A stretch of DNA of 62,246 nt from Deltaproteobacteria bacterium (GCA_019309685.1 JAFDFT010000001.1:1-62246), one strand, 5' to 3'. Shown: positions 2,480 to 48,378, counted from the stretch's first letter. Made by a program: numbers and translations. Notes: generated from the sequence alone by a model not told the origin.

Positions 2480-5400
2480 CTACTCCCATTGTTTTTGAAT
2501 TTCAAGAGCTTTCCAGCGCTGATTTTCAGGAATATTATTAAACCCTGGCTTCATTCTGGATTCAATCATACCTTCAATGTCAATGATCCTGTGAGGCCTA
2601 TTGACTTTTGCGGCCTTTTCGTTCCATTTCGCAATCTCTTGCATAATGGCCTGCGTTGCCTTGTAATCTTCCCGCCTTAGAGCGTTTACAAATCGATCTG
2701 CAAAGGACCGTCTTTTCTCTGAAATAGAAGTTTGCATCTTCTTTGTTGCTCTATAAGAGGCAAATCCCTTTGATACAGATGTGGGCTGCAGGCCAACAAA
2801 ACTCTTTTGGACAAACTCTTTAGTTGTGATCTTCCTGGGGCCGGCTTTCCCCACTGCGTTAATATCCCGGCCACTTCTGGTCCTGTGGCCTATTGTGTAT
2901 AGTTCAAGGCCCCTCATTGCGTTTCTAACAGATAACGGAGTGAACGGCGTTTCAGCCGCCGCCCGGTAATAGTTGCCTGACTTCAAGCTTTTATACATAT
3001 TTATTGAATCTTCATAGGCCGCGTACGGCACACCGATAATGTCATAAACGTTTTTGGGTACTTCAATTGATAGTGATCCGGAAAAATCCGCACCAACTAC
3101 ACCAGGAAGACCGTAAACGATTAAGTCTTTCATCCATTGATCCGGTACCATCTTTCTTGCCATTGTGAGCGCGTCCTCGTCGTCTTCTCCAATTGCCGCG
3201 AAAAGGATATCAGTAAACACCTTAAAAAACGGTAGAGACGTTAAACCGCCCATTAAGAATAGATTTCTAAGACTCCTGGCAAAAGCTTTCTTTCCGCCTC
3301 GCTGGTTAAAAAACAGATGTCTCATTGCTAAAAGATAGTTATGGCTGAAGGATCTGAACGTATAAGCCGCCCTGGCAATCTTCTGAGCATCCCCGCCTCG
3401 CATACCTGTGGGCATATTTGCCTTGCCATAGAGGAAGTGGCTATCATAAACAACCGTTTTTGCAAACGCTACTGCATCATCATGTGACATGCCCTTTTCT
3501 TTCACACCGACACGATAAGCAGCGAGCCCGGTTGACGCCCGGTTGAACTTCTCAGCCACTTGCATGAAGATACCTGACTTATCAATAACCTTTTTGAAAT
3601 GTTTACCTATCCCGACACCTGGCATGTTCCCTTTAAGTTCTCTTAAAAACAGATCCATGGTTGCGCCGGATTCTACCATTTCATGTAAAGCCTGCTGTTC
3701 GTTTTTAGTTATGTGTTTATAATCAACCTCTTTCCCGAACCATGCGTTTTTGGACGTTAAAGCCCTTCTGGTGTCTACCATGGCCTTGCTCAACTTTCTG
3801 TGGGCTCCTTTTGTGTGAAGTCCCAGCATGGGGGCTGCCATTACAACATTTTGTGTAAGGTTGACCATACCCGACTTAATCACAAAGCCAAGATATTTAA
3901 CAAAGAATATCCCTCGAAGGGTATCAACAGCGCGATCCGTTTTATCCTGGTTAGCCAGCATGTCCTTGACGTACTTAGATAAATGCTTGTACCCGGCTGG
4001 GTATTTTTTCGCGTCCACATTAACAAGGATCTCATGGTGCGCCTTTGTTCTTGTAATTTTTGTTTTAAATCCGGCATATCCGGAAAGATAATCAAACAGT
4101 ATCCCGAATATGTCTTCTTTTTCATGGCCAGGGATATTCTTTCTGTGAATTCCATGCTTACCCCAGCCCCTTGCTTTGAAAGTGTCTGCAACGGCTTTTG
4201 ATAGCGCATCTTCCATGTCTGCCGTTAAACGTCTGCGTGCAAGGTCAAGAGCCTCTTTGCGAGTTTTACCCTCTTTATTGTAAAGTCTATCAGCTTCATA
4301 CTGAACCCTGGACGTTGCAAGATCCTTGCCCGCCGATGAGACAACCTGTTGAATTCCCTCAATTGGTATCTGAAAGAAGACTTCATCCGGCAGTTCTTTC
4401 AGCGGTCCAGGATCGCTTATCCTATAGTCAGACACACTACCCTTAAGCTTCCCTTTTGCGACCGCATCTTTTAACCACTGTTCAGCTCTTGCCGACGCTT
4501 TTCTATTAATAGGCAATATCCTGTCTTTGGTTAAGCTGAAATGCTCCCTGAAAACAACAATTTCCTTTTCTTTATTAAATATCTGAATATAACCGCTGCC
4601 GGTCCGCCGGTGCGGAAAATAATTATTAGCTTTGTTAATGTTCGCCCTGTATTCTCTAATCTTTGACGAGTCAAGATCCTCGATTCTCATGGTCCTGTCA
4701 ATATCGACGAACTTTTCGTCAAGCTTTTTCCTGATAGTTATAAAACCCTGTATAACCGCTGGGTTAACCCGGCTTTTTTCAAGGAAAGCTTTAACTTCCC
4801 GATAGTGTTCAGGATCGATTTCAATGTCTTCGCCCTGCTCTGCAGGCTTGTTCCAATCGGTCGGGACCGCCTTCTTTGGCATCCGTCTATCATCCCATTT
4901 CCATATCAAGTCTTGTAGTTCTTTCTTTTGAGCTTTGGACCATTTCCCATATTCGTCCTGTAGTTCCCCCAGGTCCCCTTCATAATCGTTAAACAGCTCG
5001 GTTGATCGCGTCTCTGCTGCTTTTATTTCAACGCCAACCGCATCTTTCATAAACCAAAACTTTTTGCCTGCCCAATAAGGATTATTGAAAGTTCGATCAT
5101 ACCACTTCATATCCTTATCAACAAAACCCTTTCCGAAACGATCCTGGGCGTATTTAAACAAGCCTTTAGATTCCCGGTGTATTTTCTTGTGTGAAGGATC
5201 TTTGAGTTTCTTTAAACCTTTTTTTGCTTCCGGCATGTGCCTATTAAGCAGGTCTTTGATATCCTGGTCCAAGTCTTCTTCGTCGATCATACTGTCAAGA
5301 TCATCTGCCGCCCATGGGGAGCGACCGCCTTTCTCCATGCCGTAGGCTATGTTCTCTTTCATTTTTTCAGGCCCGGCCTGGTCAATCTTGCTTCGCGCTA

Positions 5401-8400
5401 AATCGATTGCCTGTTTTTTGATCGTGCCATTTGCAAGCTGTTGGCCGGTTGTGGCTTCTGTAACCGTCCACTCTTTATCATCCTCAGCTCTTGATATAAA
5501 AGCTTCTATCGGCTCGCCGGTCCAATCATCAGGCACAACGTCAACCTTTTTAGCATTGTCCGGGGCCGTCTCAAATTCTCCTCGAACATTTACATAGTAT
5601 TGTGATGGTTCAGGTCGGGGAGTCTCGACGGGCGTTTCCATTACGGGCGTTTCAGCTTCTTCAATATCGGTTTCTTTTAAGCCTATCGATTTCAACATAT
5701 TGTCTCTATCGACTTGCCGTTCTGTTGCGACTTCCTCCGTGACGTCCTCTCTTACCCTTGAAAGATCGTTTAATTGGTCTTCAATCTCTGACAACTGCTG
5801 TTCCTTGTCAGCTATTTCCTGGCCTTTACCGAACTTCTTATCTGCAAGCGTTTGATGTTCTGCAAGCTCTATTTCAAGCTCCTTAATATAATCCGTTTCC
5901 TTTTGTGGCTCTGCGAGTCTTTGTTCAATACTGTTATTAATAACAGTAGTTAATCCACCAGGTCCCCTTGTGGTTCTTCTAATAATAAGATCGCCCTCAT
6001 GCCTTAACTCAACCATTGTATCGTCAAGCACATCTTCATTAAGAGTGATAGGTGTACCAGGCTTTTTGAGAACCTCGTTAAGATTATACCACACCAGGGG
6101 CTCAAAGGTGACTTTAAGATCTAAGCCGTGGACCTTGGTATTAAAATAAACTTTATCCTGTCCGGCTTTCTGCCTTGCACGATAATCTGAATAGGAAATA
6201 CCCTTGAAGCTCTTTTCAATTTTACCCTTAATGTTATCCCATTCTTTCCGGAATTCCTTTATAAACTCTTTGCTGGTTAATTCCTCGCCTTTATATGTAT
6301 AGGTTTCAAGTTTTCCGGTCGGGAATATCGATTTAATCGTTTTTGCAACACCTTCTGCTCTAACAAGGTTTTCTTTTTGATTCGGGATATCGATCTCTTT
6401 AAGACTTTTTACACTGCGCCTGGCTGAAGATACCGCCCTTTCGTGGCTTGATTTAAGTATCCGTAAGTTTTTAAGATCAATTTCAAGATCATTCTTTGTA
6501 AACAAAAGAGGATTTCCGGAAAAAGCGGCTTGCATTTCTGCATAAGACACCTGTTCTTCGCCTAAAGGTTCGTCAAAGGTCCTGCCGTCTATATCTCCAT
6601 TAAGCATTTGATCGATAAACTTTTGCTTTTTCATCAATCGATCATACATAACAGAATCAAGAGTATTTTTAACACCATAGTTAAATATCTGCACTTCTGC
6701 GTTTTCGTTCTTTTCTCTTACTATCCTGCCGTTTCTTTGCTCAATATCCATTGGCCGCATGGGTGCGTCAAGATGGTGAGCTGCTATAAGCTTATTCTGG
6801 ATATTAACACCAATGCCAAGTTTGGCCGTCGAACCGATAATAAATCTTATCTTGCCGTCCCGGGCTCTTTGGAAAACAGCTTCCCTTTGAACATCGGTTT
6901 TAAGTTCTCCGATAATAGCAATCTCTTTGGCCTTCATTCCCTTTGCAATCAGCTTGTCTCGGATATCGTGATAGGCATTAAAGGTCTTGTCTGAATTTTG
7001 ATAGATATCAAGAAAGGCTATCTGTACGCTGTTATCTTCTGCCGTATCCTCATAGATCTGATAAATGTTTTCAATAGCGGTATTTAACTTGCTGCCAGGA
7101 TCATCTTTATAATGTTGTGGGTCGATCAGGCGTAAATCAACCGCAGCTTTCCGGGCCTGGCCAAAGAGGACAAGAGGAACGTGCCGCTGTCTCATTTTCT
7201 CCCTGCCTGTCAACTGCTCCCAATGTTCCCGGGTATCCCTTAATATTTCAATAAAGCCTGATAGGGCATTTGTACGCTCAACAACAACCATTTCAGGCTT
7301 GCCGGTTTTAATCTTTGGAAGAACAAGCCCAGCATCCTGGGTTAAAACAACATCAGACGCCGTATGGAACATGGTTAATAGTTCAGGACCGTTTACATAC
7401 TTATTGAATCTTTCGACCGATTTAAACGTCCCGGACTCGGTTTCTTCAAGCGCGACTGTGGTATCTCCAAAGTTTGCCGCGAAATCATCAAATAACGTTG
7501 CGTTATATTCTTCAAGCAGATCTGGTCGGATATATCTGATCATGGTCCAAAGCTCTGCGGTTGTGTTGGATATCGGCGTACCTGTGGCTAATATGATGTT
7601 CTTACCGCCGGTTTTCTGCCTGATATAATCGGCTTTTAAAAGTAAGGACGTACTGCGCTGTGCAGATCCCTGGTCAATCCCCTTAACCTGGCCCATTTTG
7701 GTAAAAAACTCTGAGCGTTTGTAATTATGCGCTTCGTCGATTAAAAGAGCATCAACGCCAAGCTGCTCAAATTTTAGGGCATCGTCAACGCGTCTGTTTA
7801 ATAGTTTTTCTAAATGCGCTTGTTTTCGTTTCTTAAGGGCCTTCATCTGCTTAACCGTTAAAGATCCCTTTCCCTCTGCCGCTTCGAATTCGTCAACGGT
7901 CGCTTCTATCTCGTCAAGTTGTTCCTGGACGAAAGCTGCCTCTCTTTCGGCATCGTCTGCAATACCGTCAAAGAATGAATGAGGCAATATAACAGCATCC
8001 CAATCGCCGGTAGCAATTTGAGAAAGTAACTTCTTACGGTTTTTACCCTTCCTCTGTCCGTCGCTGGGAATAAGGACTCGCGCTTGCGGGTAAAGCTTAT
8101 GAAATGATTTAGCATATTGCTTAATTGTGGCGTTTTGAACTACGATCAAGGGCTTTCTTGCGGTACCTATCCGTCGCATTTCCATGGCCAGGGTAACAAA
8201 AGAACCCGTTTTTCCGGTCCCTACACCATGGGAAAATAAGGTTGACTCCTGCAAACCTCTTGCAACTGCCTTCTTTTGTAACCAGCGCAGTTCCCTTTCG
8301 CGAGAAGCGTTCGGAAAATATTTAACGTCGGGTGGATCAAACGTTCTTAAAACATATCCGTTAAATTCCTCATTATATATTTTTGCTAAATCCGGTCCCC

Positions 8401-11400
8401 ACTTTTCGTGGCTTTTCGACCACTTTAAAAACTCCGCCTGAATTTCTTTCTGTTTCTCTGTGGCTGCGAGCGTGGCTTCTGCATTAAGGACTTTCGACAT
8501 TCCGCCTTCTGGATTCTGAACAGAATCATAAACCTTTGTTCTCTTTAGATTTAAAGCATCCTGAACGAGTACATGCCCTTTTACTCTCCCCGTTCCCCAG
8601 GTATTTACATTCTTTGCGTTATCGTGTCGGGATCTCGGCGAAACTTTCCATGCGGAAGTTTCTCTCGTTCGTGCCTGCTGAACTTCGGTATCAACCTCCA
8701 TGGTTGTTGATATGAATTGTTGGATAAGGTCGTTAGGTAGCCATGAGCTCCCCAGCTTGAAATAAATAAATTCTATGTCTAATTCTTCCGGCTGGACAGC
8801 TTTAAGCGCTTTAACGTTATGCTTATATTCTGGTTTTTCGCTCGCCTGCTGCTCAACAAGAATAAGCTTTTTCTTAACATTCCCGGAAAGATAGTTCTCG
8901 GGAGTCTCGATCATACCGTTTTCAGGGTTTAGATATCCAAGCTCCTGATCAATAACATCTTTATAAACAGCTTCTTTAGTCGATCCTGTAAGATCGGCAA
9001 TGAACTGAGTGTTTACTTTACCTTTATAAATTAAAGAAAGCGCTATCGCGTCTTTTACATTATCTGCTGTTTTAGGTTCTCTAAAAGGAAAAATGGTCCG
9101 CTTCGCGAATATGGCAGACTTTGTAAAAGAAACAATATTTACCTTGCGTTCCTGCCCCTTTTTGGCTCCGCTTTTAAATTTAGTGGTATGCTGCTTGACC
9201 GTTTCATCTTCCAGGGCATCAACCACAGGAAAGTCATTATCTATCTTTTGCAAGAAAGAGTTTGCAGGGGCGCCGACGTTTCCGTTCTTAGAAACGAAAG
9301 CATCGTAATCTTTGTTTAATTGTTTCCGTAATTTTGTGATTTCCGCGTCGGTTGCGTCCTCTTGCTGCATCCGGTCGATAATCTTTATAGTCGTGTCTTT
9401 TAATTTTAAATAATCCCTGGCCCTGCTTTCCCGGCCCTTATTATCGATTGCTTTAACCAGCTTACCTTTTGTGTTGTAAATTTTAGGCTCAACAAGGATA
9501 CCGTCCTCAACAACGCGAAACTTGCCGTCTTTTTCAAGCAGTATATTTTCTTTCGTGCCTATATCGGCATATTCCTTTTCGCCTTCTTCCACGATAGAGC
9601 CTTCACCGGCTATATCTTTTGGCAGGGTTTCTATGGCTTTTTTGATTTGCTCGGCAAGATCCCCTTTGTTTGGCAACAGGGTATACGTTTTTTCACCATA
9701 CATGGTCCCTTTTTTCGAGTGCTTCCCCATGACCATTTCAGGATGATCGACAAAATATTCATTTATAGGGACCGTATCTGATGCAGCACGACCGGACTTG
9801 ACTTCCTTTGTGATCCTGAAGTCTTTTCCCAATCCCTGCAATTCGTTGTCTTTTTTCCGAAAAATAAGAATATCGGTAACAACTTCGGTGCCAGCGTCCT
9901 TCTTAAACGCCGTTTCTGGAAGTCTTATTGCACCGATCAAGTCGGCTTTATTTGCAATATACTCTTTAACGTTACCATTTGTTGTTGAATCTAAGGTATA
10001 TCGTGAAGTAATCGCGATAACGAGGCCACCAGGTCGCACAGAATCAATCGAACGCGCAAAGAAGTAGTTGTGTATGCTCCAATCTGAGTAATCAGGATGC
10101 TTCTTGTCGTAGACCGGATATTTACCAAAAGGGAAGTTACTCACAACCAGGTCCGCGGAATTGTCGGGGATCCCCTTTGCATTTTCAAAGCCGGTTATTT
10201 GAATTCGAGCCTGCGGATATAGCTTTTCAAGTATTTTTCCTGTGATTGTATCTAATTCGACACCTACCAGGGCAGAATTATTGCGCATAGCTTCGGGCAT
10301 TAAACCAAAGAAGTGACCGACACCGGCAGCGGGCTCTAAAACAGTCCCGCCTTTAAAGCCGAAATGTTCGGCAATGTCCCAAATAGAATTGATAACCTTG
10401 CGTGATGTGTAATGAGCGTTTAGGGTGGACTCTGCGGCGCTGTCCCATTCTTCCTGAGTCAATAAGCCGTTAAGCCTGGGATGAAGGTGTCTTCCGTACT
10501 TGCTTTTCCATTCCTCGTATTTTTTAAGATCATCCCCATATCTACTGAAATAGTTTTCAGGCTTTTTGATATCGGAAGAATTCTTTAGGAAGTTGTCGTA
10601 TTTGCGGGTAAAAACCTTTTGAGCGAAAGCGCCCCAGCCAACATACTGAGCCAGGGCCTTCTTTTCTTCAACGGTAGGATTACGATTTTCGGATTCGAGC
10701 TGTTTAACAAGTCGAATTGCTTTTATATTGGTCTTGATTTTAGTTACGTCACCGCGCGGAAACATAAGGTCGCCCGCTTCGATAACGTGGTTTTGATCTT
10801 CTTTCTTTGTTAGGCTGTCATCGTCCCTAAGATTTGCAGTTCCAGCTCGTTCGCCAGGCTCCTGGGTGGATTCTGACCGCTTGCCGGGCCGTCCGACGGC
10901 GCCACTATCTTTGCGTACACCACTTCCTCGATCTGGTCTGGTTCCATCTTCCCCTGCAGGCGCAGTATCGATGTCAGTATCGACGACCTCTGCACTATCC
11001 GGAGCAATATCTGTTTGAGCTGGTCCCGGTCTTCCTGAAACAGCTTCCGGGTGTCCTGCGGGTGGTTTTCCAGTAGCCATTGCAGATGGCTTTCCCACTC
11101 CGGGTAGTTCTCCGGATTCTCTATCTCCAATTCCTCCGGGTTCAGGTTCTTCAATTCCTGTAGTGACAGTTCCGACGCCTTCAACACCTTCAACGATAGA
11201 TCCACCTGTGGCCTCCTTTCCCATTTCTTCTTTTATAAATTTCTCAATATACACCTTTCCCTTTAAGGAAAGAGTATCAATCATAATTTTAACAAATTCA
11301 GATCCACTTTTACCCGCTGCGATAGCTGCTTTCAAGGCTTTGTGTAAATGAGGCTTTATCTGTTCCCATTTATCCGGGTTGAATTCTGTAGAAAATTCAC

Positions 11401-13411
11401 CCTTTTGGCCAAGGATATCGCTAACAGCCTTCAGCTCGTCGGCAAGGACGGTAAGGTTGTCAACAACTTCTTTGCCCTTAATCTCTCTTTCTTGCCTTTT
11501 AAAGTCGGCAAGTAGTTCGGTGGGGGTTGAATCTTCTACAGGTTTGGTTATCTCTCGTATTCCGGGTGATACGGATTCTTGGTCTTCTTCGGTAGGTGAT
11601 TTCCGGGTTTGGTCCACCGGCTTGCGCTGAACAGTCTCTTGCTCATATCCTCGCTGAAGGTCAGATTCGGATCCCGGTTTAATAACCCGGACACGCCCTC
11701 GAATTTTCGGGAGTCTTTCTTCAATTTCTTGCTCAGTTTTTTTAGGTTTTCTTTCATAGCGTATTACCCCCTTAGCTTCAGTCTTAATATAATCCAATTT
11801 TTTGAATTTGTCAAACAAATTCTTGTCTAAAACCTCAGTTTTTCCTTTTTCATGTTTAAATACTTGAATAGAGTCCCGACCGTCCACATTATTATCAGAC
11901 ATTTCAAAGATAACGTTATGATTATCTTTGTATTCCTTAAACAACTGTCGAAACGTAGGAAGTGAATAATTATAGGCCTTTACAGAGGCACTCAATGGAA
12001 CTTTACGGCCAACAACTTCGCGACCTTCTGCCCGGGCTTCTTCTTCCTGGGCCATTTTACGCAATCTTACTCTAACCTGAGAAGTTTCCGCGTCAATGTC
12101 AGTAAAGCCAATGTGAGCTTCCCCACCTTGTTCAAGTACCTTTTCTATATATCCTTTTGCTTTTTCATAATTGCCTAAAAGCGAATCATAAGCTACATGG
12201 TGTCCCTTTTTTATGGCTCTATTTAAGATTACGCCTGAAATCTTTTTTGCTTCTTCGTGATATGCGACAGCTTCTTCGCCCTGGTCGTGGCCTAAATCAA
12301 CTTTTACCTGATCAGCATTAGGATCGACAAAAACTTTCAGGTCTATCCCCATATCAATAGAGCCGCTTGTTTTACCCGCACCAGGGAGCCCACCCGTTAA
12401 AACGATAGTTTGTGTTTCTCCAAGGTCTTTAGCTGTGGGCTTGCCCTTTAAGTGAAGATTAAACAGCCGTCTTTTCTCTTGCCGGGTAATTTTGACCGGT
12501 GCCAACTCGGTTGCAAGCTCTATTTCCTCGATAACAGCGTCAAGGATCTCGTTTAATTCGCCAAGTTTGGTCCGGCCAGTAACCTTTTCTATGGCTTTAA
12601 GGATAATATCTTTAAGCTGGCCCCATAGGGTTTGAGACTCATTTTTAACGCCTTTGGCTCCGATTGAATTCAACCAGTTAGCAAAGGTTTTATTGGTAAG
12701 ACCGTATGTTGCGAGCTCGTCAACTTTTGCTCTGCCGGTATCTATCTCTGTGAATATTTTTTTAACATATGTCGGGGCGGTATCAACGTGTGTTTTTAAT
12801 GTATCGTAAAATTCAACGAGGTCTTTATGGAGCGTTTCATAGGATCCGCTTTGTGTCTTGATAACGTTATTAATAAGAGCATGAATTGCCTCATGCGCGA
12901 GCGGCTGGTCAAATTTGTCGGCGGTTCTTTCTGCCTTTTCGAGTAGGCCCCTGTTAATAAATATTCTGTTCGTCCTGTTACTGTAAACTGCGATAGAAGT
13001 CGGCCTTGCCTTTATATTATTAACAACGCTGATCTTTACGTCGTATTTTTTAATGGCATTAAAAAGCGCTCCGTATTGTGTTGGAACTCCAACCTTGCCA
13101 AAAAAGGCTTCAACAAAATCTCCAACGGGAGATACAGTTTTAACCTCGTCCACCGTTTCATTGAAAGCTGTGAAAAAGTCGGCTTTCTTGACCGGCGCTA
13201 TCGGCTTGTCCGACATGTTCTTTCTGATAAACTCAATAATATCAACACGATCTTTTTGAGCCTCTGCCAGTTTTTCCCCGACAACCTTAAGCGCTGCCTT
13301 CCGATCTTCCATGCCTAATTCGACAAGATCATCGACCAGGCCGTTAATTTCGGTTCGTTCGTCCCTCGATATCTTAGCCAGTTTGAAACATTTATTAGAT
13401 ATCATCGTCAA
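2480..13411 (-). CDS. 3643-aa polyvalent protein: HExxH module, zeta-toxin-like P-loop kinase, disordered linker, N6-adenine MTase, SNF2/DEAH helicase, hydrophobic C-terminal region (DarB-like, probably virion-delivered)
   Basis: One uninterrupted ORF. Motifs: HEAIH 12881..12895; GGLPGAGKTS 12365..12394; P/G/E/D-rich linker 10802..11209; YVGWGAF; LEPAAGVGHF 10310..10339; SNFPFG 10124..10141; GVGTGKTG 8204..8227; DEAH 7727..7738; QRNGRIVR 6716..6739. Confidence 0.9.
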   Translation of the reverse strand: MTMISNKCFKLAKISRDERTEINGLVDDLVELGMEDRKAALKVVGEKLAEAQKDRVDIIEFIRKNMSDKPIAPVKKADFFTAFNETVDEVKTVSPVGDFVEAFFGKVGVPTQYGALFNAIKKYDVKISVVNNIKARPTSIAVYSNRTNRIFINRGLLEKAERTADKFDQPLAHEAIHALINNVIKTQSGSYETLHKDLVEFYDTLKTHVDTAPTYVKKIFTEIDTGRAKVDELATYGLTNKTFANWLNSIGAKGVKNESQTLWGQLKDIILKAIEKVTGRTKLGELNEILDAVIEEIELATELAPVKITRQEKRRLFNLHLKGKPTAKDLGETQTIVLTGGLPGAGKTSGSIDMGIDLKVFVDPNADQVKVDLGHDQGEEAVAYHEEAKKISGVILNRAIKKGHHVAYDSLLGNYEKAKGYIEKVLEQGGEAHIGFTDIDAETSQVRVRLRKMAQEEEARAEGREVVGRKVPLSASVKAYNYSLPTFRQLFKEYKDNHNVIFEMSDNNVDGRDSIQVFKHEKGKTEVLDKNLFDKFKKLDYIKTEAKGVIRYERKPKKTEQEIEERLPKIRGRVRVIKPGSESDLQRGYEQETVQRKPVDQTRKSPTEEDQESVSPGIREITKPVEDSTPTELLADFKRQEREIKGKEVVDNLTVLADELKAVSDILGQKGEFSTEFNPDKWEQIKPHLHKALKAAIAAGKSGSEFVKIMIDTLSLKGKVYIEKFIKEEMGKEATGGSIVEGVEGVGTVTTGIEEPEPGGIGDRESGELPGVGKPSAMATGKPPAGHPEAVSGRPGPAQTDIAPDSAEVVDTDIDTAPAGEDGTRPDRGSGVRKDSGAVGRPGKRSESTQEPGERAGTANLRDDDSLTKKEDQNHVIEAGDLMFPRGDVTKIKTNIKAIRLVKQLESENRNPTVEEKKALAQYVGWGAFAQKVFTRKYDNFLKNSSDIKKPENYFSRYGDDLKKYEEWKSKYGRHLHPRLNGLLTQEEWDSAAESTLNAHYTSRKVINSIWDIAEHFGFKGGTVLEPAAGVGHFFGLMPEAMRNNSALVGVELDTITGKILEKLYPQARIQITGFENAKGIPDNSADLVVSNFPFGKYPVYDKKHPDYSDWSIHNYFFARSIDSVRPGGLVIAITSRYTLDSTTNGNVKEYIANKADLIGAIRLPETAFKKDAGTEVVTDILIFRKKDNELQGLGKDFRITKEVKSGRAASDTVPINEYFVDHPEMVMGKHSKKGTMYGEKTYTLLPNKGDLAEQIKKAIETLPKDIAGEGSIVEEGEKEYADIGTKENILLEKDGKFRVVEDGILVEPKIYNTKGKLVKAIDNKGRESRARDYLKLKDTTIKIIDRMQQEDATDAEITKLRKQLNKDYDAFVSKNGNVGAPANSFLQKIDNDFPVVDALEDETVKQHTTKFKSGAKKGQERKVNIVSFTKSAIFAKRTIFPFREPKTADNVKDAIALSLIYKGKVNTQFIADLTGSTKEAVYKDVIDQELGYLNPENGMIETPENYLSGNVKKKLILVEQQASEKPEYKHNVKALKAVQPEELDIEFIYFKLGSSWLPNDLIQQFISTTMEVDTEVQQARTRETSAWKVSPRSRHDNAKNVNTWGTGRVKGHVLVQDALNLKRTKVYDSVQNPEGGMSKVLNAEATLAATEKQKEIQAEFLKWSKSHEKWGPDLAKIYNEEFNGYVLRTFDPPDVKYFPNASRERELRWLQKKAVARGLQESTLFSHGVGTGKTGSFVTLAMEMRRIGTARKPLIVVQNATIKQYAKSFHKLYPQARVLIPSDGQRKGKNRKKLLSQIATGDWDAVILPHSFFDGIADDAEREAAFVQEQLDEIEATVDEFEAAEGKGSLTVKQMKALKKRKQAHLEKLLNRRVDDALKFEQLGVDALLIDEAHNYKRSEFFTKMGQVKGIDQGSAQRSTSLLLKADYIRQKTGGKNIILATGTPISNTTAELWTMIRYIRPDLLEEYNATLFDDFAANFGDTTVALEETESGTFKSVERFNKYVNGPELLTMFHTASDVVLTQDAGLVLPKIKTGKPEMVVVERTNALSGFIEILRDTREHWEQLTGREKMRQRHVPLVLFGQARKAAVDLRLIDPQHYKDDPGSKLNTAIENIYQIYEDTAEDNSVQIAFLDIYQNSDKTFNAYHDIRDKLIAKGMKAKEIAIIGELKTDVQREAVFQRARDGKIRFIIGSTAKLGIGVNIQNKLIAAHHLDAPMRPMDIEQRNGRIVREKNENAEVQIFNYGVKNTLDSVMYDRLMKKQKFIDQMLNGDIDGRTFDEPLGEEQVSYAEMQAAFSGNPLLFTKNDLEIDLKNLRILKSSHERAVSSARRSVKSLKEIDIPNQKENLVRAEGVAKTIKSIFPTGKLETYTYKGEELTSKEFIKEFRKEWDNIKGKIEKSFKGISYSDYRARQKAGQDKVYFNTKVHGLDLKVTFEPLVWYNLNEVLKKPGTPITLNEDVLDDTMVELRHEGDLIIRRTTRGPGGLTTVINNSIEQRLAEPQKETDYIKELEIELAEHQTLADKKFGKGQEIADKEQQLSEIEDQLNDLSRVREDVTEEVATERQVDRDNMLKSIGLKETDIEEAETPVMETPVETPRPEPSQYYVNVRGEFETAPDNAKKVDVVPDDWTGEPIEAFISRAEDDKEWTVTEATTGQQLANGTIKKQAIDLARSKIDQAGPEKMKENIAYGMEKGGRSPWAADDLDSMIDEEDLDQDIKDLLNRHMPEAKKGLKKLKDPSHKKIHRESKGLFKYAQDRFGKGFVDKDMKWYDRTFNNPYWAGKKFWFMKDAVGVEIKAAETRSTELFNDYEGDLGELQDEYGKWSKAQKKELQDLIWKWDDRRMPKKAVPTDWNKPAEQGEDIEIDPEHYREVKAFLEKSRVNPAVIQGFITIRKKLDEKFVDIDRTMRIEDLDSSKIREYRANINKANNYFPHRRTGSGYIQIFNKEKEIVVFREHFSLTKDRILPINRKASARAEQWLKDAVAKGKLKGSVSDYRISDPGPLKELPDEVFFQIPIEGIQQVVSSAGKDLATSRVQYEADRLYNKEGKTRKEALDLARRRLTADMEDALSKAVADTFKARGWGKHGIHRKNIPGHEKEDIFGILFDYLSGYAGFKTKITRTKAHHEILVNVDAKKYPAGYKHLSKYVKDMLANQDKTDRAVDTLRGIFFVKYLGFVIKSGMVNLTQNVVMAAPMLGLHTKGAHRKLSKAMVDTRRALTSKNAWFGKEVDYKHITKNEQQALHEMVESGATMDLFLRELKGNMPGVGIGKHFKKVIDKSGIFMQVAEKFNRASTGLAAYRVGVKEKGMSHDDAVAFAKTVVYDSHFLYGKANMPTGMRGGDAQKIARAAYTFRSFSHNYLLAMRHLFFNQRGGKKAFARSLRNLFLMGGLTSLPFFKVFTDILFAAIGEDDEDALTMARKMVPDQWMKDLIVYGLPGVVGADFSGSLSIEVPKNVYDIIGVPYAAYEDSINMYKSLKSGNYYRAAAETPFTPLSVRNAMRGLELYTIGHRTRSGRDINAVGKAGPRKITTKEFVQKSFVGLQPTSVSKGFASYRATKKMQTSISEKRRSFADRFVNALRREDYKATQAIMQEIAKWNEKAAKVNRPHRIIDIEGMIESRMKPGFNNIPENQRWKALEIQKQWE

Positions 13412-43805: not shown

Positions 43806-43983
43806 TCTGGTTTACCCTGGCTGTCTTTCCGCGTTCAGCATTGCGAAACTTATTCTTTTTTTGGGCTATTATTACTACCCCATAGTTTACAGGATCATAT
43901 ATAATCGGCGTTCCGTCCAGTGTATGATCAGGAGCGTTTTCCCCAAAGTCTTCTTTGCTCATTCCTATTATTAAGGGCTTCAT
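43798..43983 (-). CDS. hypothetical protein (61 aa)
   Basis: Track ORF coupled to TerS. Confidence 0.35.
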   Translation of the reverse strand: MKPLIIGMSKEDFGENAPDHTLDGTPIIYDPVNYGVVIIAQKKNKFRNAERGKTARVNQNE

Positions 43984-44525
43984 TTTTGGTTTATCCGAGC
44001 TGTTTTGCCGTCAATTTCATCAAGAAGGTTGCTGAAAGTCTCTGCAAACCCTTCACCCTTCTGCTTATTATCCTTTTCGAACAACCCCTCAAACTTTGCC
44101 AGATATTCAAGAGCCTTAAGCTTATCAGACATTTTAATCTTTTTAGTGAACTGGCCATAGATAATGCTTTCTTGAACATCAACACCGACGAGCGCTGCTG
44201 CTGTATTCTTGTCAATCTCATGAAGTTTCTTAAGAGTACCGTCCCTGTTATAGATCTTCCTAATATCAAAGAACGCGATCTGAGCAATGCCTTTTATGAT
44301 ATTGGCTGCGTTAACATCTGCTAATTTCGTAGCGCGGGCCTTCCTGATTGCTAATTCCTTGACAATGTTATCATTTGTCATCAGCCGGGAAGCATTTTTT
44401 CTTGCGGCTTTTGGCGCGTAACCAGCTTTAATATAAGCCTTTTCCTGAGTCATACCTTTGATAAGGTTATGAATAAACTTGTCCTGCATGGGGGAAAGCT
44501 TTGCTTTTTTCTTTTTTTTAACCAT
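43980..44525 (-). CDS. terS: terminase small subunit
   Basis: LSPMQDKFIHNLIKGMTQEKAYIKAGYAPKAARKNASRLMTNDNI is the typical TerS HTH N-terminus. Confidence 0.75.
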   Translation of the reverse strand: MVKKKKKAKLSPMQDKFIHNLIKGMTQEKAYIKAGYAPKAARKNASRLMTNDNIVKELAIRKARATKLADVNAANIIKGIAQIAFFDIRKIYNRDGTLKKLHEIDKNTAAALVGVDVQESIIYGQFTKKIKMSDKLKALEYLAKFEGLFEKDNKQKGEGFAETFSNLLDEIDGKTARINQK

Positions 44526-44537
44526 AATTATTTCTTC

Positions 44538-45071
44538 TTATATTTGGTTCAAGCTGGCAAACTCTCCATGATACTTTAGGGCTGCTTTATTATAGACAAT
44601 AGCCGCTTCAGTCCTGTCTTTAAAACAACCGAGATAAATGGGTTTTTTGTTTGCAGTTATTCTCACCATCCATTGTTTTATATCCTTAAGCCAAAATACG
44701 CCCTTAAATCCCGATGTGTTATTTTTACTAAGACCGGTATTCCTATTATTTTCCGCCCTTATACAAACCCTGAGGTTAGACTTTCTGTTATTTAAAGGAT
44801 TTCTGTCTTTATGGTCTATCATTCTCTCCTTGCTGGATTTAAACCCCATTATTACGTTTGATATCGTCTCGTGACTCCTGTCCCTTTTTGTTTGTACGCA
44901 ATCGATCTTCCCCTTTCTCGAACAAAGACACCACTTAAAGCCTTTAACTTTCTCAGTGTCTTCGGCATCAATTATCGCTCGGGCTCGTTCTTTGCCTTTA
45001 GTATCATACAGGACGAGTTCAGCTATATTACCCTTGATGATTATTTCGTTTGGATTATATATGGTTCTCAT
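44538..45071 (-). CDS. HNH endonuclease with C-terminal AP2 DNA-binding domain
   Basis: IDHKDRNPLNNRKSNLRV (HNH), then SGFKGVFW...WMVRI...LGCF.....AA..YN.AA..YHGEFA (AP2). Paralog of 59376..59996. Confidence 0.8.
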   Translation of the reverse strand: MRTIYNPNEIIIKGNIAELVLYDTKGKERARAIIDAEDTEKVKGFKWCLCSRKGKIDCVQTKRDRSHETISNVIMGFKSSKERMIDHKDRNPLNNRKSNLRVCIRAENNRNTGLSKNNTSGFKGVFWLKDIKQWMVRITANKKPIYLGCFKDRTEAAIVYNKAALKYHGEFASLNQI

Positions 45072-45263
45072 TTAGTCATTTTTCTTCCGTCTCAACCCAA
45101 AGTCAAAGATCTTCTGCATCCGTTTTCGCCTTGGTTCCGGATCCGAATATCCACCTGCAGGATAACTTGTTTGCGGTTTTACTGGCGGTTTCGGTTTCGG
45201 TTTTCTCTCCCTGATCCCTATTTTCTTTCTCAGCCTTGCGAGTACTCCGCGCTTTTTCTTCAA
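45072..45263 (-). CDS. hypothetical highly basic protein (63 aa)
   Basis: Track ORF, K/R/P-rich. Confidence 0.4.
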   Translation of the reverse strand: MKKKRGVLARLRKKIGIRERKPKPKPPVKPQTSYPAGGYSDPEPRRKRMQKIFDFGLRRKKND

Positions 45264-45285: not shown

Positions 45286-45486
45286 TTACATAAAATTAAT
45301 TTCTCTACAGCTTATATCCAAGGCCCGGTTATAATCTCCGAAACGATGAACCATGAAATGATAAAAATCGGCCTGTGAGATCCTGAGACTTTTTAACCAC
45401 TGCCACCTGGTACAACTGTAAATGATTATTATCATATTTCCGTGAAATTTTGTATCTGTGATTACTTTAGGGACGCCCGCGTCCAC
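45286..45486 (-). CDS. hypothetical protein (66 aa, GTG start)
   Basis: Track ORF. Confidence 0.35.
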   Translation of the reverse strand: MDAGVPKVITDTKFHGNMIIIIYSCTRWQWLKSLRISQADFYHFMVHRFGDYNRALDISCREINFM

Positions 45487-45677
45487 TTCAAAGTCATGGA
45501 TCCGTCAGGCCCGCTTAATGCTTAATCCGCCCCATACTGTGTCAGGGACAATCCAGTCCCCTACTTTTCCAGGACCTCAGCCCCCTGCACAACGATCTAT
45601 TTCCTCTTTAGTTGCTCGCCAAAAAGCTTCAATCGCGTGTAAGGGGACCTCGGGACCTTCGTACTTGATACCTAACA

Positions 45678-45863
45678 TTATTTCTTAGCGGCCTTTTCGA
45701 CCTTGTGACCGATTCCAAGAGCTGTAAGAGCGCTAAAACAAACCATAGCGCCCTGATACATCTTGTCTGGATTAACGGGCTCACCGACAAATCCTGCAAT
45801 TATCATTGCAACGCCGGTACAAAGAACACCTCCTGAACCAAGTTTTGTTTTCCATCCTGTCAT
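45678..45863 (-). CDS. holin-like two-TM protein (61 aa)
   Basis: Two hydrophobic segments (GGVLCTGVAMIIAGFVG and GAMVCFSALTALGIG) with a basic C-terminus KVEKAAKK, near the lysis genes. Confidence 0.45.
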   Translation of the reverse strand: MTGWKTKLGSGGVLCTGVAMIIAGFVGEPVNPDKMYQGAMVCFSALTALGIGHKVEKAAKK

Positions 45864-46030
45864 TTTATTTTTCTCCTGTTTTATTGGTTAACGTAAACCC
45901 TTCGGTTAAAATGATATGTGATGGATTAAAACGGCTGCGCTACCGTCAAGGTAAGTGGCGCTTTGCCTCTTAGCCCCGTCCACCACATATAGCCCATGAA
46001 ACGAAACCTAAGTAACATGGGGATGATAGC

Positions 46031-46480
46031 CTATCTCCGAATAAATTTAGTCTGTCTCGGTGTTGCCATAGCTATACCGTTACGGAAAGAAAAGACGAAC
46101 TTACCCAATAATACCGAATTATAATTGTCAAGAAAGCCAAGCGTTCCGTCAGTTTTGAGAAAGACACCTACCAGCTTTTGAACTTCTGCCATGAGTACCA
46201 TGTTTTGCGTAGTCTGCCCGTAATTTTTAAAGATATACGTTGCAGCGTACTCTAATGCAGCTTGACTTACGGTTTCATTGTCTGCTTTCAGATAAGCATC
46301 GCAAATCTCAACCACTTCGTCGATCTTATCCAGGTTGTTGGAGCCCACCATCACCCCGGCAATGATTCCACCATGGTCTATGACGGCTTGCCCTGATTCT
46401 GATTCCAGAAATGCGTTCATGCCCGTACAGCCTGTAAATAAAAAAACTATTGCAATTATTATAAATAGAGATTTTCTCAT
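46031..46480 (-). CDS. lipoprotein (149 aa)
   Basis: MRKSLFIIIAIVFLFTGC lipobox. Confidence 0.6.
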   Translation of the reverse strand: MRKSLFIIIAIVFLFTGCTGMNAFLESESGQAVIDHGGIIAGVMVGSNNLDKIDEVVEICDAYLKADNETVSQAALEYAATYIFKNYGQTTQNMVLMAEVQKLVGVFLKTDGTLGFLDNYNSVLLGKFVFSFRNGIAMATPRQTKFIRR

Positions 46481-46584
46481 TTTCTGCCTTTGCCTCCTTT
46501 TTGTGGGGTTTTACAGCCGCCCCTGCCTTTATTGGCCCTCTTGCCCTTACCCGATCCGTCTCTCTTGGGTACTCCTTTTGCCAT
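46477..46584 (-). CDS. 35-aa Gly/Lys/Arg-rich peptide
   Basis: Hand translation MAKGVPKRDGSGKGKRANKGRGGCKTPQKGGKGRK. AAAGGAGG SD, and its TGA overlaps the lipoprotein ATG. Confidence 0.4.
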   Translation of the reverse strand: MAKGVPKRDGSGKGKRANKGRGGCKTPQKGGKGRK

Positions 46585-46601
46585 CACAACCTCCTTTAAT
46601 G

Positions 46602-47459
46602 TTATATGCCTCCAAAGATCAGCCTTTCATTAATAGCTTTTCCGTTGAATTGAGGAATTTGCGTAAATCCACCCGCTTCAACATCGAGTAAAACATCTGA
46701 ATAAATATCGTTCCATGATTTTGCCGGGTGAATATGTTTAATGAGGTTGTGTGTAAATGCGCCCTGCCAGGTGTCGTTTATATAAGCGTCTGCTGATGTT
46801 TGATTATCCCTACAGCCGGATAGCAAAACATGGTTTAGTTCTATCGCTCTGGTTCCTATTTTCCTGTTTTGTAGTTCTCTCCCGGCGCTCCGCATCTGTA
46901 TGTCCCTGGGGGGTGCTAAAAATCTTGGCTGTTGCTTTGTTGGATTGTTGATGTCCCGGGTCATGCTTCCGGAATGGCAAGCATCAATTATGCAAGTAAG
47001 GGATGAATTTTGAGGAATTTCCTTGAATATTTCGGATAAATAATCATCGGTAAGTGGTAAATCCCAATTTATATCGTGGGGACATAAGATTTCGTCTAAA
47101 CCGTCGTTTAGCTCGTCTCCGTCTCTATCCCTTACCTGTGAGCCGTGTCCCGAGTATTGAAACACAAGCTCACTGTTCTCATGGTCCACCAACCATATCA
47201 GCCGGTCTATAATATTATTATGCGTTGCTCTTTCGTCTGTAACTACTCGAATATTATCCGCATCGAAATTGAACTGCTCAATTAAGACGGTTCTTAGGTG
47301 TTCCACATCGTTACAGCACCCGCGTAAATCACAATTAAGATCAGGTCTGTACTTATTAATCCCAACAAGCAGGGCGTATTTATATCTGTCGCCCACCTCT
47401 ACGTTTGGTTGACTCACGCTGGGCGGTTTATTAAATAAATTGCTTAAAAATTTACACAT
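46602..47459 (-). CDS. caspase/metacaspase-like cysteine protease (peptidase C14 fold)
   Basis: YALLVGINKY. Catalytic His in YSGHGS (47145..47147) and catalytic Cys in IIDACHSGS (46977..46979). TAATG coupling to the amidase gene. Confidence 0.85.
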   Translation of the reverse strand: MCKFLSNLFNKPPSVSQPNVEVGDRYKYALLVGINKYRPDLNCDLRGCCNDVEHLRTVLIEQFNFDADNIRVVTDERATHNNIIDRLIWLVDHENSELVFQYSGHGSQVRDRDGDELNDGLDEILCPHDINWDLPLTDDYLSEIFKEIPQNSSLTCIIDACHSGSMTRDINNPTKQQPRFLAPPRDIQMRSAGRELQNRKIGTRAIELNHVLLSGCRDNQTSADAYINDTWQGAFTHNLIKHIHPAKSWNDIYSDVLLDVEAGGFTQIPQFNGKAINERLIFGGI

Positions 47460-47902
47460 TATTTTCCCCTAAAGGCTTCAATGTTAAATCGTTTACCAGG
47501 GCAGGTCTTCCAGGGTGCCAGCTCTGTGTGTCCAAATACCTTTGCCGCTGGTATTTCGAATGTCTGCCTTAACGCCATAACCAGCTTTAAACCGCAGGCA
47601 AGCATTGCAACTGGCAGTGGATCATTGTCATAATTACCAATAAAACAAATACCCAGGCTGCGGCTATTCATATTATTCTGTTTACAGTGGGCTCCGTTTT
47701 CGTTCCACAATCTGCCGATAATGATCTCGTAACGGTCCCTAACCAATTCAATCATAAAGTGGTATCCGATATCTCGCATGGGTTTGTTACGATATGGACT
47801 ATCTGGATGAAGGCCGGTGTGCCATTTTCTGATGGCAGAGGTATTGTAGGATTTTCCGTCGGTGCTTAGGCTATGATGAAGGGTTATAAATTCTGGTGTC
47901 AT
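47459..47902 (-). CDS. N-acetylmuramoyl-L-alanine amidase (PGRP / T7-lysozyme type) endolysin
   Basis: ITLHHS, GYHFMI, GAHC, SLGICFIGNYD, GHTEL...CPGKRF. Confidence 0.85.
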   Translation of the reverse strand: MTPEFITLHHSLSTDGKSYNTSAIRKWHTGLHPDSPYRNKPMRDIGYHFMIELVRDRYEIIIGRLWNENGAHCKQNNMNSRSLGICFIGNYDNDPLPVAMLACGLKLVMALRQTFEIPAAKVFGHTELAPWKTCPGKRFNIEAFRGK

Positions 47903-48009
47903 ATAGCCCCTTATTGAAGTTTAGGCGCGAGGTGGACGGCCCCGCGCCCAATGGAGGGTAATTATGAAAAGAAACGTAAAGGGAAATTTAAAATAGCAAA
48001 AACCTAATG

Positions 48010-48378
48010 TCAACTCTTTTTTCTGTTTTTTATTATTTCGGGGAAATTTAAGCATAAGATCTTATCTTCAACAAGTCTGTGGCACGCAGGGCATAAAGTT
48101 ACACCATTTTCTGATATATCCAGCCTGAGCCTTCCCCTGGGAACGATGTGATGGAAGTGTAGCTCCGATCTGCGATAGATCTCTGAGCAATTAGGATTAA
48201 CACAGTGCCAGCCGTCCAGGGCGTGAACCCTTTGTTTAAGTTTAGAGTATTCGTAAGGAGAAAGTTTAACGGCCAGCTTTGGATAAGCAAAACCCGTCCA
48301 ATCAACCGGCTTTTTCTTTTTATGTTTATTTTTCGGATCTGGTTTCATGGATAAGTTTATCCAATATCGGTGTTTCAA
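48010..48378 (-). CDS. small HNH (His-Me finger) nuclease
   Basis: GWHCVNPNC...LHFHHIVPRG...ENGVTLCPACH. Confidence 0.65.
   Translation of the reverse strand: MKHRYWINLSMKPDPKNKHKKKKPVDWTGFAYPKLAVKLSPYEYSKLKQRVHALDGWHCVNPNCSEIYRRSELHFHHIVPRGRLRLDISENGVTLCPACHRLVEDKILCLNFPEIIKNRKKS

Follow-up and report, generated by a model that had tools for sequence, protein, structure and literature searches.

A metacaspase-type cysteine protease is encoded within a phage lysis operon on the minus strand of a 62,246-nt stretch of DNA (hereafter the window) from a Deltaproteobacteria bacterium assembly (GCA_019309685.1, JAFDFT010000001.1:1-62246). The operon spans 45286-47902 and contains six genes, which encode an endolysin, the protease, a small basic peptide, a lipoprotein, a holin-like protein and a probable selenoprotein of the phospholipase A2 (PLA2) family. 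The protease is a phage-specific variant of a known family in a setting that we have not found described, a holin-endolysin operon without spanins. The same genes recur under strong purifying selection in related phage contigs, which indicates that the arrangement is not due to chance. Between the window and the related contig L001 (L-numbers denote related or homolog-bearing contigs), the ratio of nonsynonymous to synonymous substitution rates (dN/dS) is 0.09 for the protease, whose L001 ortholog is 89% identical, 0.16 for the lipoprotein and 0.19 for the holin-like protein. An earlier reading of this DNA from its sequence alone (the sequence-only reading) had described the first five genes of the operon; all five open reading frames (ORFs) were confirmed, and the sixth gene extends the cassette beyond the lower boundary of that description.

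The protease is a metacaspase

The protease gene (46602..47459, minus strand) encodes a single-domain protein of 285 aa with no signal peptide or other export signal, which matched Pfam Peptidase_C14 at 1.9e-30. A profile built from 36 aligned homologs matched the Candida and yeast Metacaspase-1 structures best in the PDB (4.9e-56 and 1.2e-55), followed by AtMC4, TbMCA2, AtMC9 and the bacterial protein GSU0716. An AlphaFold2 model (pLDDT 78.8, pTM 0.79, with low-confidence segments at residues 163-174 and 195-206) gave a Foldseek ranking against the PDB, in which AtMC9 (7e-17), AtMC4, GSU0716 and Yca1 precede the paracaspase MALT1 and then the caspases. A two-domain hidden Markov model alignment to CgMCA-I and Yca1 recovers the p20-then-p10 order. 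The catalytic residues are His105 in YSGHGS (nt 47147-47145) and Cys161 in DACHSG (nt 46979-46977), which in the profile alignment are in register with His182 and Cys238 of CgMCA-I (residue list from PMC9622860). Both are invariant across the 36 aligned homologs, as are C48, D51, S103, D159, D122, D138 and D139. The sequence-only reading had recognized a caspase-fold protease with an intact His/Cys dyad and had suggested placing it among the C14 families by profile and structure searches; these searches support C14 and allow a more precise statement, in that profile, modeled structure and invariant residues together confirm a true metacaspase (C14B) with its catalytic residues intact.

The acidic S1 pocket of TbMCA2, which accepts Arg or Lys at P1, is formed by Cys92, Asp95, Ser156 and Asp211 (PMC4357240). 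All four equivalents are conserved in the phage enzyme as the invariant residues C48, D51, S103 and D159, from which cleavage after Arg or Lys, rather than Asp, is predicted. Metacaspases are typically Ca2+-dependent (PMC4357240, PMC9622860), and of the four aspartates of the TbMCA2 calcium site (Asp173, Asp189, Asp190 and Asp220), three have conserved counterparts in D122, D138 and D139. The extra regions that define the metacaspase types were not found, as about 25 residues stand ahead of the core and the p20-p10 linker is about 45 residues long. Judged by this domain layout, the protease is a minimal, prodomain-less metacaspase like bacterial GSU0716.

Residues 2-12 of the window protein (CKFLSNLFNKP; 47424..47456, minus strand) form a putative amphipathic membrane-association helix with a helical hydrophobic moment of 0.56, a value reached by 2.9% of shuffled sequences. 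A motif of the type "MCKxLxxLF" stands at the start of the protein or just upstream of the core in 22 of the 36 aligned homologs, 15 of which fall below 5% in the same shuffle test; in another eight homologs, a hydrophobic helix followed by KKRK, a transmembrane (TM) anchor, takes the place of the motif. The F-L-x-x-L-F pattern resembles the membrane-targeting helix of MinD. Homologs from cellular genomes begin directly at the catalytic domain in 77 of 79 cases. As the amphipathic or TM N-terminus is thus specific to the phage proteins, we infer an association of phage metacaspases with the inner membrane, on its cytoplasmic side.

In one relative (L032:3450-5594; IMG/VR 3300029258_004408) an insert of approximately 430 aa splits the metacaspase homolog, and it is placed precisely behind the catalytic SGHG. 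The junctions (…SGHG|CFSGDTRISLLD … VFVHN|SQVRDRNGDEL…) carry the end motifs of an intein, and we regard the insert as intein-like. An intein at the active site of the protease suggests that the enzyme matters to the phage.

Membership in the lysis operon

Coupling of the protease to the endolysin inside a lysis operon, the central claim of the sequence-only reading, is borne out by the overlap of the amidase stop codon with the protease start codon (TAATG at 47459) and by recurrence of the arrangement in related contigs. The endolysin gene (47459..47902, minus strand), the first of the cassette, encodes an N-acetylmuramoyl-L-alanine amidase of 147 aa belonging to the Amidase_2, or peptidoglycan recognition protein (PGRP)-T7 lysozyme, type (Pfam PF01510, 2.8e-16; PHROG endolysin/amidase families, 4.5e-17). 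It has no N-terminal hydrophobic segment, and thus neither a signal nor a signal-arrest-release (SAR) sequence, which makes it holin-dependent. The overlap of the peptide stop with the lipoprotein start (ATGA), which had also been pointed out, is present as well, and a further TAATG joins the holin stop to the start of the PLA2 gene.

The protease follows the endolysin directly in phages whose endolysins are of different types. It is preceded by Amidase_2 in the window; by Phage_lysozyme, with an 8-nt overlap, in L003/L004/L017/L018 (59% identity); and by a phrog_465 endolysin (1.3e-15), in a frame missed by the gene caller, in L001/L002/L014. A phrog_465 endolysin (7e-33) also precedes the protease in the otherwise different phage L012. 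L015 and L016 have, in order, the genes for the lipoprotein, a protein of 46 aa, a holin-type protein and the protease; in phage L020 (244 kb), a membrane coiled-coil ORF and a homolog of the L015/L016 holin type come after the protease. Two unrelated holin-like families accompany the same protease, and with three unrelated endolysin types beside it, the protease persists while the surrounding endolysin and holin modules are exchanged.

Four further relatives have a conserved ORF of 99-149 aa that shares 8 nt with the start of the metacaspase gene and occupies the slot held by the endolysin in other relatives (L094:2332-2781, L096:2660-2959, L229:2825-3205 and L228 at approximately 3240-3612). 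Its family has the pattern MRCKNKQ…TSAYRK…DSGIH…RAxDxRSW…LHDSGxGxHxHxQxH, in which a zinc peptidase was suspected by eye; Pfam, PHROG, PDB profile and INPHARED tblastn searches all came back empty, and it was accordingly not counted as a fourth endolysin type. It may be an unrecognized cell-wall hydrolase.

The slot between the protease and the lipoprotein is a variable region. L094 (3631-3858) and L229 (4058-4327) each have an ORF here, 75-89 aa long and with repeats rich in Pro and Tyr (…YPTYPTYPTYPTY… and …PPPYPVCYPVYYPACPY…), which overlaps the protease stop and lies ahead of the peptide or lipoprotein, and in L094 a 39-aa ORF with a single TM segment replaces the basic peptide. Between the lipoprotein and the holin, L015 (3505-3645), L016 (4001-4141) and L099 (3648-3803) have a conserved ORF of 46-51 aa (…GKIIDEIFAKxKKFxKYKGxLxW…), which might serve in lysis as a small membrane or amphipathic accessory, for example as an antiholin or by partnering the lipoprotein. 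In the window, the 167-nt gap at the corresponding place (45864-46030) showed no homolog of it.

The sequence-only reading had also drawn a parallel to bacterial caspase-like proteases that activate gasdermin pores and other abortive-infection effectors. This link found no support beyond the shared fold. Pfam detected no gasdermin in the cassette, and the predicted specificity is for Arg/Lys rather than Asp. In PADLOC, the amidase, lipoprotein, holin and PLA2 proteins were unmatched and no neighbor of the protease fits a defense model, while the protease itself matched only the generic PDLC02987 "caspase" model, at positions 4-158 of 453. An origin of the protease from a defense system was rejected on the grounds of this generic domain match and of its build, a single 285-aa domain with no sensor or repeat domains.

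Lipoprotein, basic peptide and holin-like protein

The lipoprotein (46031..46480, minus strand; 149 aa) has a single N-terminal hydrophobic segment and the lipobox LFTGC, with the lipidated position at Cys18 and Thr at +2, which by the Escherichia coli rule is an outer-membrane sorting signal. Its C-terminal segment (F-R-N-G…P-R…K-F) is invariant and forms a basic tail comprising R133, P141, R142 and K145. The family is tiny and clade-specific: a set of 5.8 billion proteins yielded 20 clusters, and an exhaustive search of 1.84 billion found 11 representatives. No relative turned up in Pfam, PHROG or the PDB; a PHROG Rz-like match (E=0.05) covers the signal peptide only. The protease is present in the same cassette at all nine sequence-distinct lipoprotein loci, across two gene orders and with flanking modules swapped. 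This makes the lipoprotein a candidate partner or substrate of the protease. It gives modest support to the suggestion in the sequence-only reading that the protease processes a lysis effector, as far as the lipoprotein is concerned; the other candidate named there, the basic peptide, proved to be optional. The lipoproteins whose genes precede that of the metacaspase in L009, L032 and L035 were rejected as remote relatives (hhalign probability 0.5%), and the lipoprotein of L099 reached an hhalign probability of 26.8% against the window family.

The same reading had seen no canonical spanin pair, which agrees with our results. The 149-aa lipoprotein is the only lipobox ORF that a pattern search recovered across the whole window; it lacks the C-terminal TM segment of a u-spanin, and neither a type-II membrane partner for it, whether adjacent or embedded, nor an i-spanin/o-spanin pair was found in the window.

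The basic peptide (46477..46584, minus strand) is 35 aa long from an ATG at 46584 that has a strong ribosome-binding site (AAAGGAGG) just ahead; the frame can be extended to a GTG at 46587. With 13 Lys/Arg and 10 Gly residues, a net charge of +12, a single Cys in a GGCK motif and almost no apolar residues, it matched no Pfam (E up to 10) or PHROG family. Homologs of 45-46 aa with the MAK start and GGCK motif hold the same slot in L096/L097 and L229, giving three lineages with the peptide; it is absent in L001, L003 and L094. A disruptin-like role was rejected, as the peptide is cationic but has neither a hydrophobic face nor a hydrophobic segment, and a likeness to DUF5320-type Gly/Arg peptides, noted by eye, was supported by no search.

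The holin-like protein (45678..45863, minus strand; 61 aa) is named only for its size, position and topology. Of its two hydrophobic segments one is clear and the other weaker, its C-terminus is rich in Lys, and it has no Pfam or PHROG match. Homologs hold the same position in L001, L096, L099, L228 and L229, and in L003, L015, L016 and L094 the gene is replaced by one for an unrelated membrane protein of 79-84 aa.

A PLA2-family gene with two in-frame TGA codons

The last gene of the operon (45286..45678, minus strand) is a 130-codon frame that contains TGA at codon 34 (45579-45577) and codon 58 (45507-45505). The frame is conserved in all relatives, and gene callers break it up into two or three "hypothetical" ORFs. 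TGA occurs at both positions in five sequence-distinct lineages (the window, L003, L094, L015 and L016). In L001 the first codon is Cys and the second TGA, in L229 the order is TGA then Cys, and L096 and L099 have Cys at both sites and encode uninterrupted proteins of 130-133 aa. The two TGA codons therefore alternate only with Cys, in all four possible combinations. In the Cys-form family C37 and C61 (in GCGPG and ACRIHD) are the only two invariant cysteines, with H64 and D65 also invariant, and the TGA codons of the window fall at exactly these two Cys positions. The dN/dS values before, between and after the two codons are 0.02, 0.00 and 0.13 for the window against L001, and deeper comparisons with unsaturated dS give 0.05 to 0.35 for segments of the gene. 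Genome-wide reassignment of TGA was rejected, as TGA terminates 13 of the 60 ORFs in the window.

A GC-rich hairpin (GGGGAC-UGGAUU-GUCCC; 45545..45561, minus strand), a candidate bacterial selenocysteine insertion sequence (SECIS), begins 15 nt past the first UGA. It is found in every lineage with TGA at this site and in L001 and is absent in the all-Cys L096, with z-scores over 48 nt of -0.5 to -3.1 as against +1.7 for L096. A possible second SECIS hairpin (GGACG-CGGG-CGUCC; 45471..45484, minus strand), weaker than the first, lies approximately 20 nt past the second UGA; hairpins at a similar distance in other lineages are lineage-specific, with none in L096, and their z-scores reach only -1.5 to +0.4. 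RNAalifold found no consensus at this second site, where the stems are in different registers.

We consider it probable from these patterns that the gene is that of a phage selenoprotein, with selenocysteine (Sec) decoded at both UGAs, and the two Sec residues might possibly form a diselenide. An explanation that we hold to be unlikely is that the UGAs are leaky stops, read infrequently by near-cognate tRNAs and throttling a dangerous phospholipase, or that the gene is decaying. Some observations are in keeping with it: no Rfam SECIS family matched, the hairpin after the second UGA is weak, and the window has no sel genes and no tRNA-Sec, nor indeed a tRNA of any kind. Against it stand the retention of TGA in five lineages and its exclusive exchange with Cys in all four combinations, as well as a hairpin after the first UGA only where TGA is, or recently was, present. 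Decay in particular is excluded by the low dN/dS (<0.2) downstream of both codons in the comparison with L001. Moreover, the metagenome-assembled genomes (MAGs) that contain the lipoprotein, its relative and the best protease matches are labeled Deltaproteobacteria or Desulfobacterales, which are selenoprotein-rich groups.

Assignment of the gene to the PLA2 family comes from its family profile, which matched the Streptomyces 1FAZ (5.5e-7) and Tuber 4AUP (2.3e-5) structures in addition to 8K1W and 7YGK. Pfam PF09056 (Prokaryotic phospholipase A2) is matched by 17 of 42 homologs, though not directly by the window protein. An AlphaFold2 model of a Cys-form homolog (pLDDT 76) had PLA2 structures as its top three Foldseek matches, all of them weak (E 0.056 to 0.64, TM-score 0.39 to 0.50). 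The protein has no N-terminal hydrophobic segment and no secretion signal, so its release would have to be through the holin. This gene, which the sequence-only reading had not described, is a more obvious candidate for the missing outer-membrane step. Only one of 43 IMG/VR loci with Cys-form PLA2 genes contained the protease, in a scan able to find Cys-encoding forms only, while all five IMG/VR contigs matching a DNA pattern of the UGA form carry the metacaspase; the link between PLA2 and metacaspase is thus confined to this clade. The commonest identifiable neighbors of the PLA2 genes are large terminase subunits, with only two endolysin matches. Our literature search found no paper on a natural phage selenoprotein or on a PLA2 in a lysis cassette.

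Distribution of the protease family

The protease family comprises 2,090 clusters at E<=0.001, many of approximately 50% identity. The long-contig contexts that were inspected look viral and include jumbo-phage-like contigs of 180-340 kb. In reference resources the family is nearly invisible: no PHROG family matches it, one of 50,697 INPHARED phage records has a match, and the significant BFVD structural matches all come from giant viruses, ascoviruses and entomopoxviruses, with no phage protein among them. A phage-encoded caspase-like protease wired into lysis is therefore as unusual as the sequence-only reading had supposed, and our literature search found no paper placing a metacaspase in a phage lysis cassette. 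Metagenome surveys note "metacaspase-1" genes on viral contigs, without giving their context (bioRxiv 10.64898/2026.01.21.700432).

Giant virus MAG contigs in IMG/VR (L040-L092) encode metacaspases 28-35% identical to the phage enzyme; metacaspases thus occur in viruses of eukaryotes as well as in bacterial viruses. Cellular homologs (37-48% identity) abound in the likely host group and among other anaerobes, without cassette genes in their neighborhood. On cellular genome contigs (L159, L164, L166, L177, L180, L189 and L190), homologs of 42-45% identity were found in archaeal MAGs of Methanothrix and Methanotrichaceae and in a Candidatus Methanocrinis genome, and others in Dehalococcoidia, Acidobacteriota, NC10 and Brachyspira. 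The family is widespread among anaerobes, in part on Mb-scale contigs.

Possible role of the protease in lysis

The role that we favor, tentatively and with more doubt than confidence, is that of an accessory enhancer of lysis gated by the holin and by Ca2+, which would act on targets in the envelope, the lipoprotein being the foremost candidate. The free Ca2+ concentration of the bacterial cytoplasm is sub-micromolar, and secreted PLA2s are typically Ca2+-dependent. The protease would build up late in infection at the cytoplasmic face of the inner membrane, and it would be latent there because cytoplasmic free Ca2+ is far below what metacaspases need. Opening of the membrane by the holin would then admit Ca2+ and allow the signal-less endolysin, protease and PLA2 to reach the periplasm, where the protease could cut after Arg or Lys in envelope-associated targets. 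The best candidate is the co-inherited lipoprotein, by way of R133, R142 and K145 in its invariant tail, and possibly the polybasic peptide as well. Both enzymes would stay silent until the holin fires and would be activated either by the influx of Ca2+ or by their release into the periplasm, which is the most economical proposal. The PLA2 would attack membrane phospholipid and, together with the protease, might complete the breakdown of the outer envelope without spanins.

Several points weigh against this proposal. The fourth calcium ligand (TbMCA2 D220) aligns with R168, which is not conserved in the family, and Ca2+-independent metacaspases such as AtMC9 are described (PMC10235996). Before lysis, the lipoprotein and the protease are in different compartments, so that processing is possible only after the holin has fired. 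The nine lipoprotein loci are from related phages and do not count as phylogenetically independent cases of the two genes occurring together. A sister cassette, in L099/L101, has a phrog_465-type endolysin, a different lipoprotein, the 51-aa ORF, a homolog of the window holin and the PLA2, and no protease was present in the inspected 8.4-9.7 kb of the contig; the protease is therefore dispensable for such cassettes and would be an accessory enhancer rather than a core component. Finally, in 24 more distant phage loci, examined for three genes on each side, no lysis family was among the top 25 PHROGs. The commonest neighbors there are HNH/endonuclease VII, phosphoheptose isomerase, polynucleotide kinase, head protein and QueE-like genes, suggesting that the metacaspase family as a whole is not dedicated to lysis. 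We conclude that the protease was recruited to the lysis operon as an accessory in this clade and is neither a core nor a universal lysis gene.

The main rival, which we consider only slightly less probable than the favored role, is that the protease is a moron, counter-defense or host-takeover cargo that happens to be in a late operon and has no direct role in breaking down the envelope, cleaving cytoplasmic or membrane-proximal host proteins such as defense effectors, sensors or housekeeping proteins, or mimicking or pre-empting a host metacaspase pathway. The wider phage family of more than 2,000 clusters is mostly found outside recognizable lysis contexts, the gene is optional in the cassette (L099), and sites beside lysis genes are classic moron sites in lambdoid phages. 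The close cellular homologs in the probable host group and other anaerobes suggest host-gene capture, and the N-terminal membrane-targeting motif would suit an attack on membrane-bound defense effectors. Cargo status fits less well with the constant place of the gene immediately behind endolysins of at least three unrelated types, where stop and start codons often overlap, and with its strict co-inheritance with the lysis-cassette lipoprotein at nine of nine loci. No defense-related neighbor or architecture was found, and late co-expression with the endolysin would be poor timing for counter-defense.

A bolder form of the enhancer proposal, which we regard as improbable, is that this clade of phages, which infect anaerobic sediment bacteria, has replaced spanins altogether with Ca2+-gated enzymes. 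In that case a membrane-tethered metacaspase would cleave and thereby arm the outer-membrane lipoprotein, as a phage counterpart of pore or fusion effectors that proteases activate, alongside a PLA2 whose diselenide or selenylsulfide replaces a structural disulfide. Such a bond would let the PLA2 fold in the reducing cytoplasm of an anaerobe.

It is more improbable still that the released protease substitutes for spanins directly, with no phage partner, by cutting host tethers of the Lpp-, OmpA- or Pal-like kind between outer membrane and peptidoglycan. The window has no spanin pair or u-spanin, the protease is signal-less and made together with a holin-dependent endolysin, and Arg/Lys specificity would suit the Lys/Arg-rich termini of such tethers. 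The L099 cassette argues against the protease as sole spanin substitute, as it lacks both spanins and protease and must leave the outer membrane to the PLA2, the lipoprotein or a small ORF.

The least probable role is that of a lysis-timing device, in which the protease at the inner face trims the Lys-rich cytoplasmic tails of the holin or of an antiholin-like partner and so sharpens or advances triggering, possibly with feedback from a Ca2+ leak: both holin types do end in Lys/Arg-rich tails (...GHKVEKAAKK and ...GRSEVKKAREMARRI), charged C-terminal tails regulate the timing of the lambda S holin and the protease has a predicted membrane-targeting N-terminus, but the pairing of one protease with two unrelated holin families speaks against a specific holin substrate and the strict link to the lipoprotein is left unexplained.

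Taken together, the identity of the protease as a metacaspase, its place in a lysis operon and its unusualness hold from the sequence-only reading, and processing of an effector is plausible; the gasdermin and defense analogy is not supported, and the gene has turned out to be accessory.

Comparison with known systems

A comparison of the phage enzyme with the Type I metacaspases Yca1, CgMCA-I and TbMCA2 and with GSU0716 (PDB 3BIJ) shows a common fold, p20-p10 order, SGHG and DxCHSG motifs and the p10 motif SGCxDxQTSADA. The phage enzyme also retains four of four S1-pocket residues and three of four calcium aspartates of TbMCA2, and it resembles GSU0716 in size and single-domain build. It differs in that a Pro/Gln-rich or zinc-finger prodomain is absent, its place being taken by a TM anchor or by a short, amphipathic N-terminus that contains Cys; it also lacks the fourth calcium Asp, is encoded by a phage and is co-translated with an endolysin. 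Bacterial caspase-like defense systems (gasdermin operons, the type IV Thoeris TIR-caspase and CHAT/Craspase) likewise tie a clan-CD protease to cell-killing membrane events, and in these the protease may activate a co-encoded effector, a logic that the strict co-occurrence of protease and lipoprotein would fit. In contrast to these systems, the protease described here is encoded by the phage rather than the host, has no gasdermin or defense gene nearby and has an S1 pocket of the metacaspase type, for a basic P1 residue. The metacaspases of giant viruses (Nucleocytoviricota) are also virus-encoded C14 proteins, but those viruses infect eukaryotes, and the "metacaspase-1" reports from viral metagenomes are bare annotations, whereas the gene here lies in a holin-endolysin operon.

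Lysis cassettes of diderm hosts in which another protein takes over the third step from spanins are known. The "disruptin" gp28 of phage phiKT is described as disrupting the outer membrane independently of spanins (bioRxiv 10.1101/515445). The 35-aa peptide of the window is, like gp28, strongly cationic, but it is not an amphipathic helix. Mycobacteriophage LysB is an esterase that acts on the outer lipid layer; the PLA2 could likewise act on lipid, although it is unrelated to the cutinase-like LysB esterases. To our knowledge, no known spanin-independent system includes a protease.

With the secreted PLA2s of Streptomyces violaceoruber (1FAZ/1LWB) and Tuber borchii (TbSP1, 4AUP), which belong to PF09056, the phage family has the CxxHD motif and the helical core in common. 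The phage form differs from them in the absence of a signal peptide, an extra N-terminal GCGPG loop, the change of invariant Cys codons to UGA and the position beside a holin gene. Among bacterial selenoproteins, FdhF has an in-frame SECIS hairpin and the SelL proteins contain a diselenide. The phage gene resembles bacterial selenoprotein genes in that UGA aligns with Cys in orthologs, the coding sequence downstream is conserved and a hairpin follows the UGA, at a spacing close to that of E. coli fdhF. It differs from them in being phage-encoded, in not belonging to an oxidoreductase family, in having no sel genes or tRNA-Sec in the window and in the weakness of its second hairpin.

Genome context

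Downstream of the cassette lie an HNH gene (44538-45071, minus strand) and, abutting it, the gene for the small terminase subunit (43980-44525), an arrangement typical of HNH-assisted cos packaging. A second HNH endonuclease gene is located upstream (48010-48378, minus strand), so that HNH genes bracket the cassette. These HNH and terminase neighbors identify the window as part of a tailed-phage genome in which the packaging genes come right after the cassette. The likely large terminase subunit reaches no more than 47-49% identity with a reference phage, and no terminal repeats were found in the window. A sigma-70-like match (TTGACA-17-TAAATT, 10/12; 47985..48013, minus strand) within a gap of 107 nt that precedes the amidase gene is a possible cassette promoter; it is a consensus match only, of a kind no commoner in the region than in shuffled sequence.

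Between the PLA2 and HNH genes, a basic ORF (45072-45263, minus strand) encodes 63 aa with 23 Lys/Arg, a net charge of +18 and a KPKPKPP repeat; relatives have a different conserved basic ORF of 69-71 aa in this slot (…DYWAKKLGLDRD…RNQRRKK…). Elsewhere in the window, a single ORF of 3,643 aa occupies approximately 11 kb (2480-13411, minus strand) and may encode a giant tail fiber or host-interaction protein.

The phage is uncultured. Its lipoprotein is 100% identical to a protein in an NCBI MAG labeled Deltaproteobacteria, a relative of the lipoprotein comes from a Desulfobacterales MAG, and the best cellular-genome matches of the protease are also Desulfobacterales MAGs. On these binning labels, the host is likely to be in Desulfobacterota, probably in the sulfate-reducing Desulfobacterales.

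Implications

Lysis of Gram-negative hosts by phages is thought to need a holin, an endolysin and either a spanin or a disruptin. If the enzymes described here act in lysis, a proteolytic and lipolytic route would be added to the known ways of breaching the outer envelope. Both enzymes could be of practical use, as Ca2+-triggered lysis parts or as enzybiotic leads. The PLA2 finding is independent of the metacaspase and arguably the more surprising of the two: the gene is a strong candidate for a natural phage selenoprotein with two Sec residues, which would be the first of its kind and would mean that phages exploit the UGA recoding of their hosts. Such TGA-containing genes are systematically truncated by gene callers. 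The protease family itself, with more than 2,000 clusters and yet essentially absent from reference phage resources, represents an annotation blind spot. Should the proposed role in lysis be true, metacaspases, whose roles in prokaryotes are almost unknown, would gain a concrete and testable function, and a cell-death protease would be seen to serve a virus for its own exit rather than a host for its defense.

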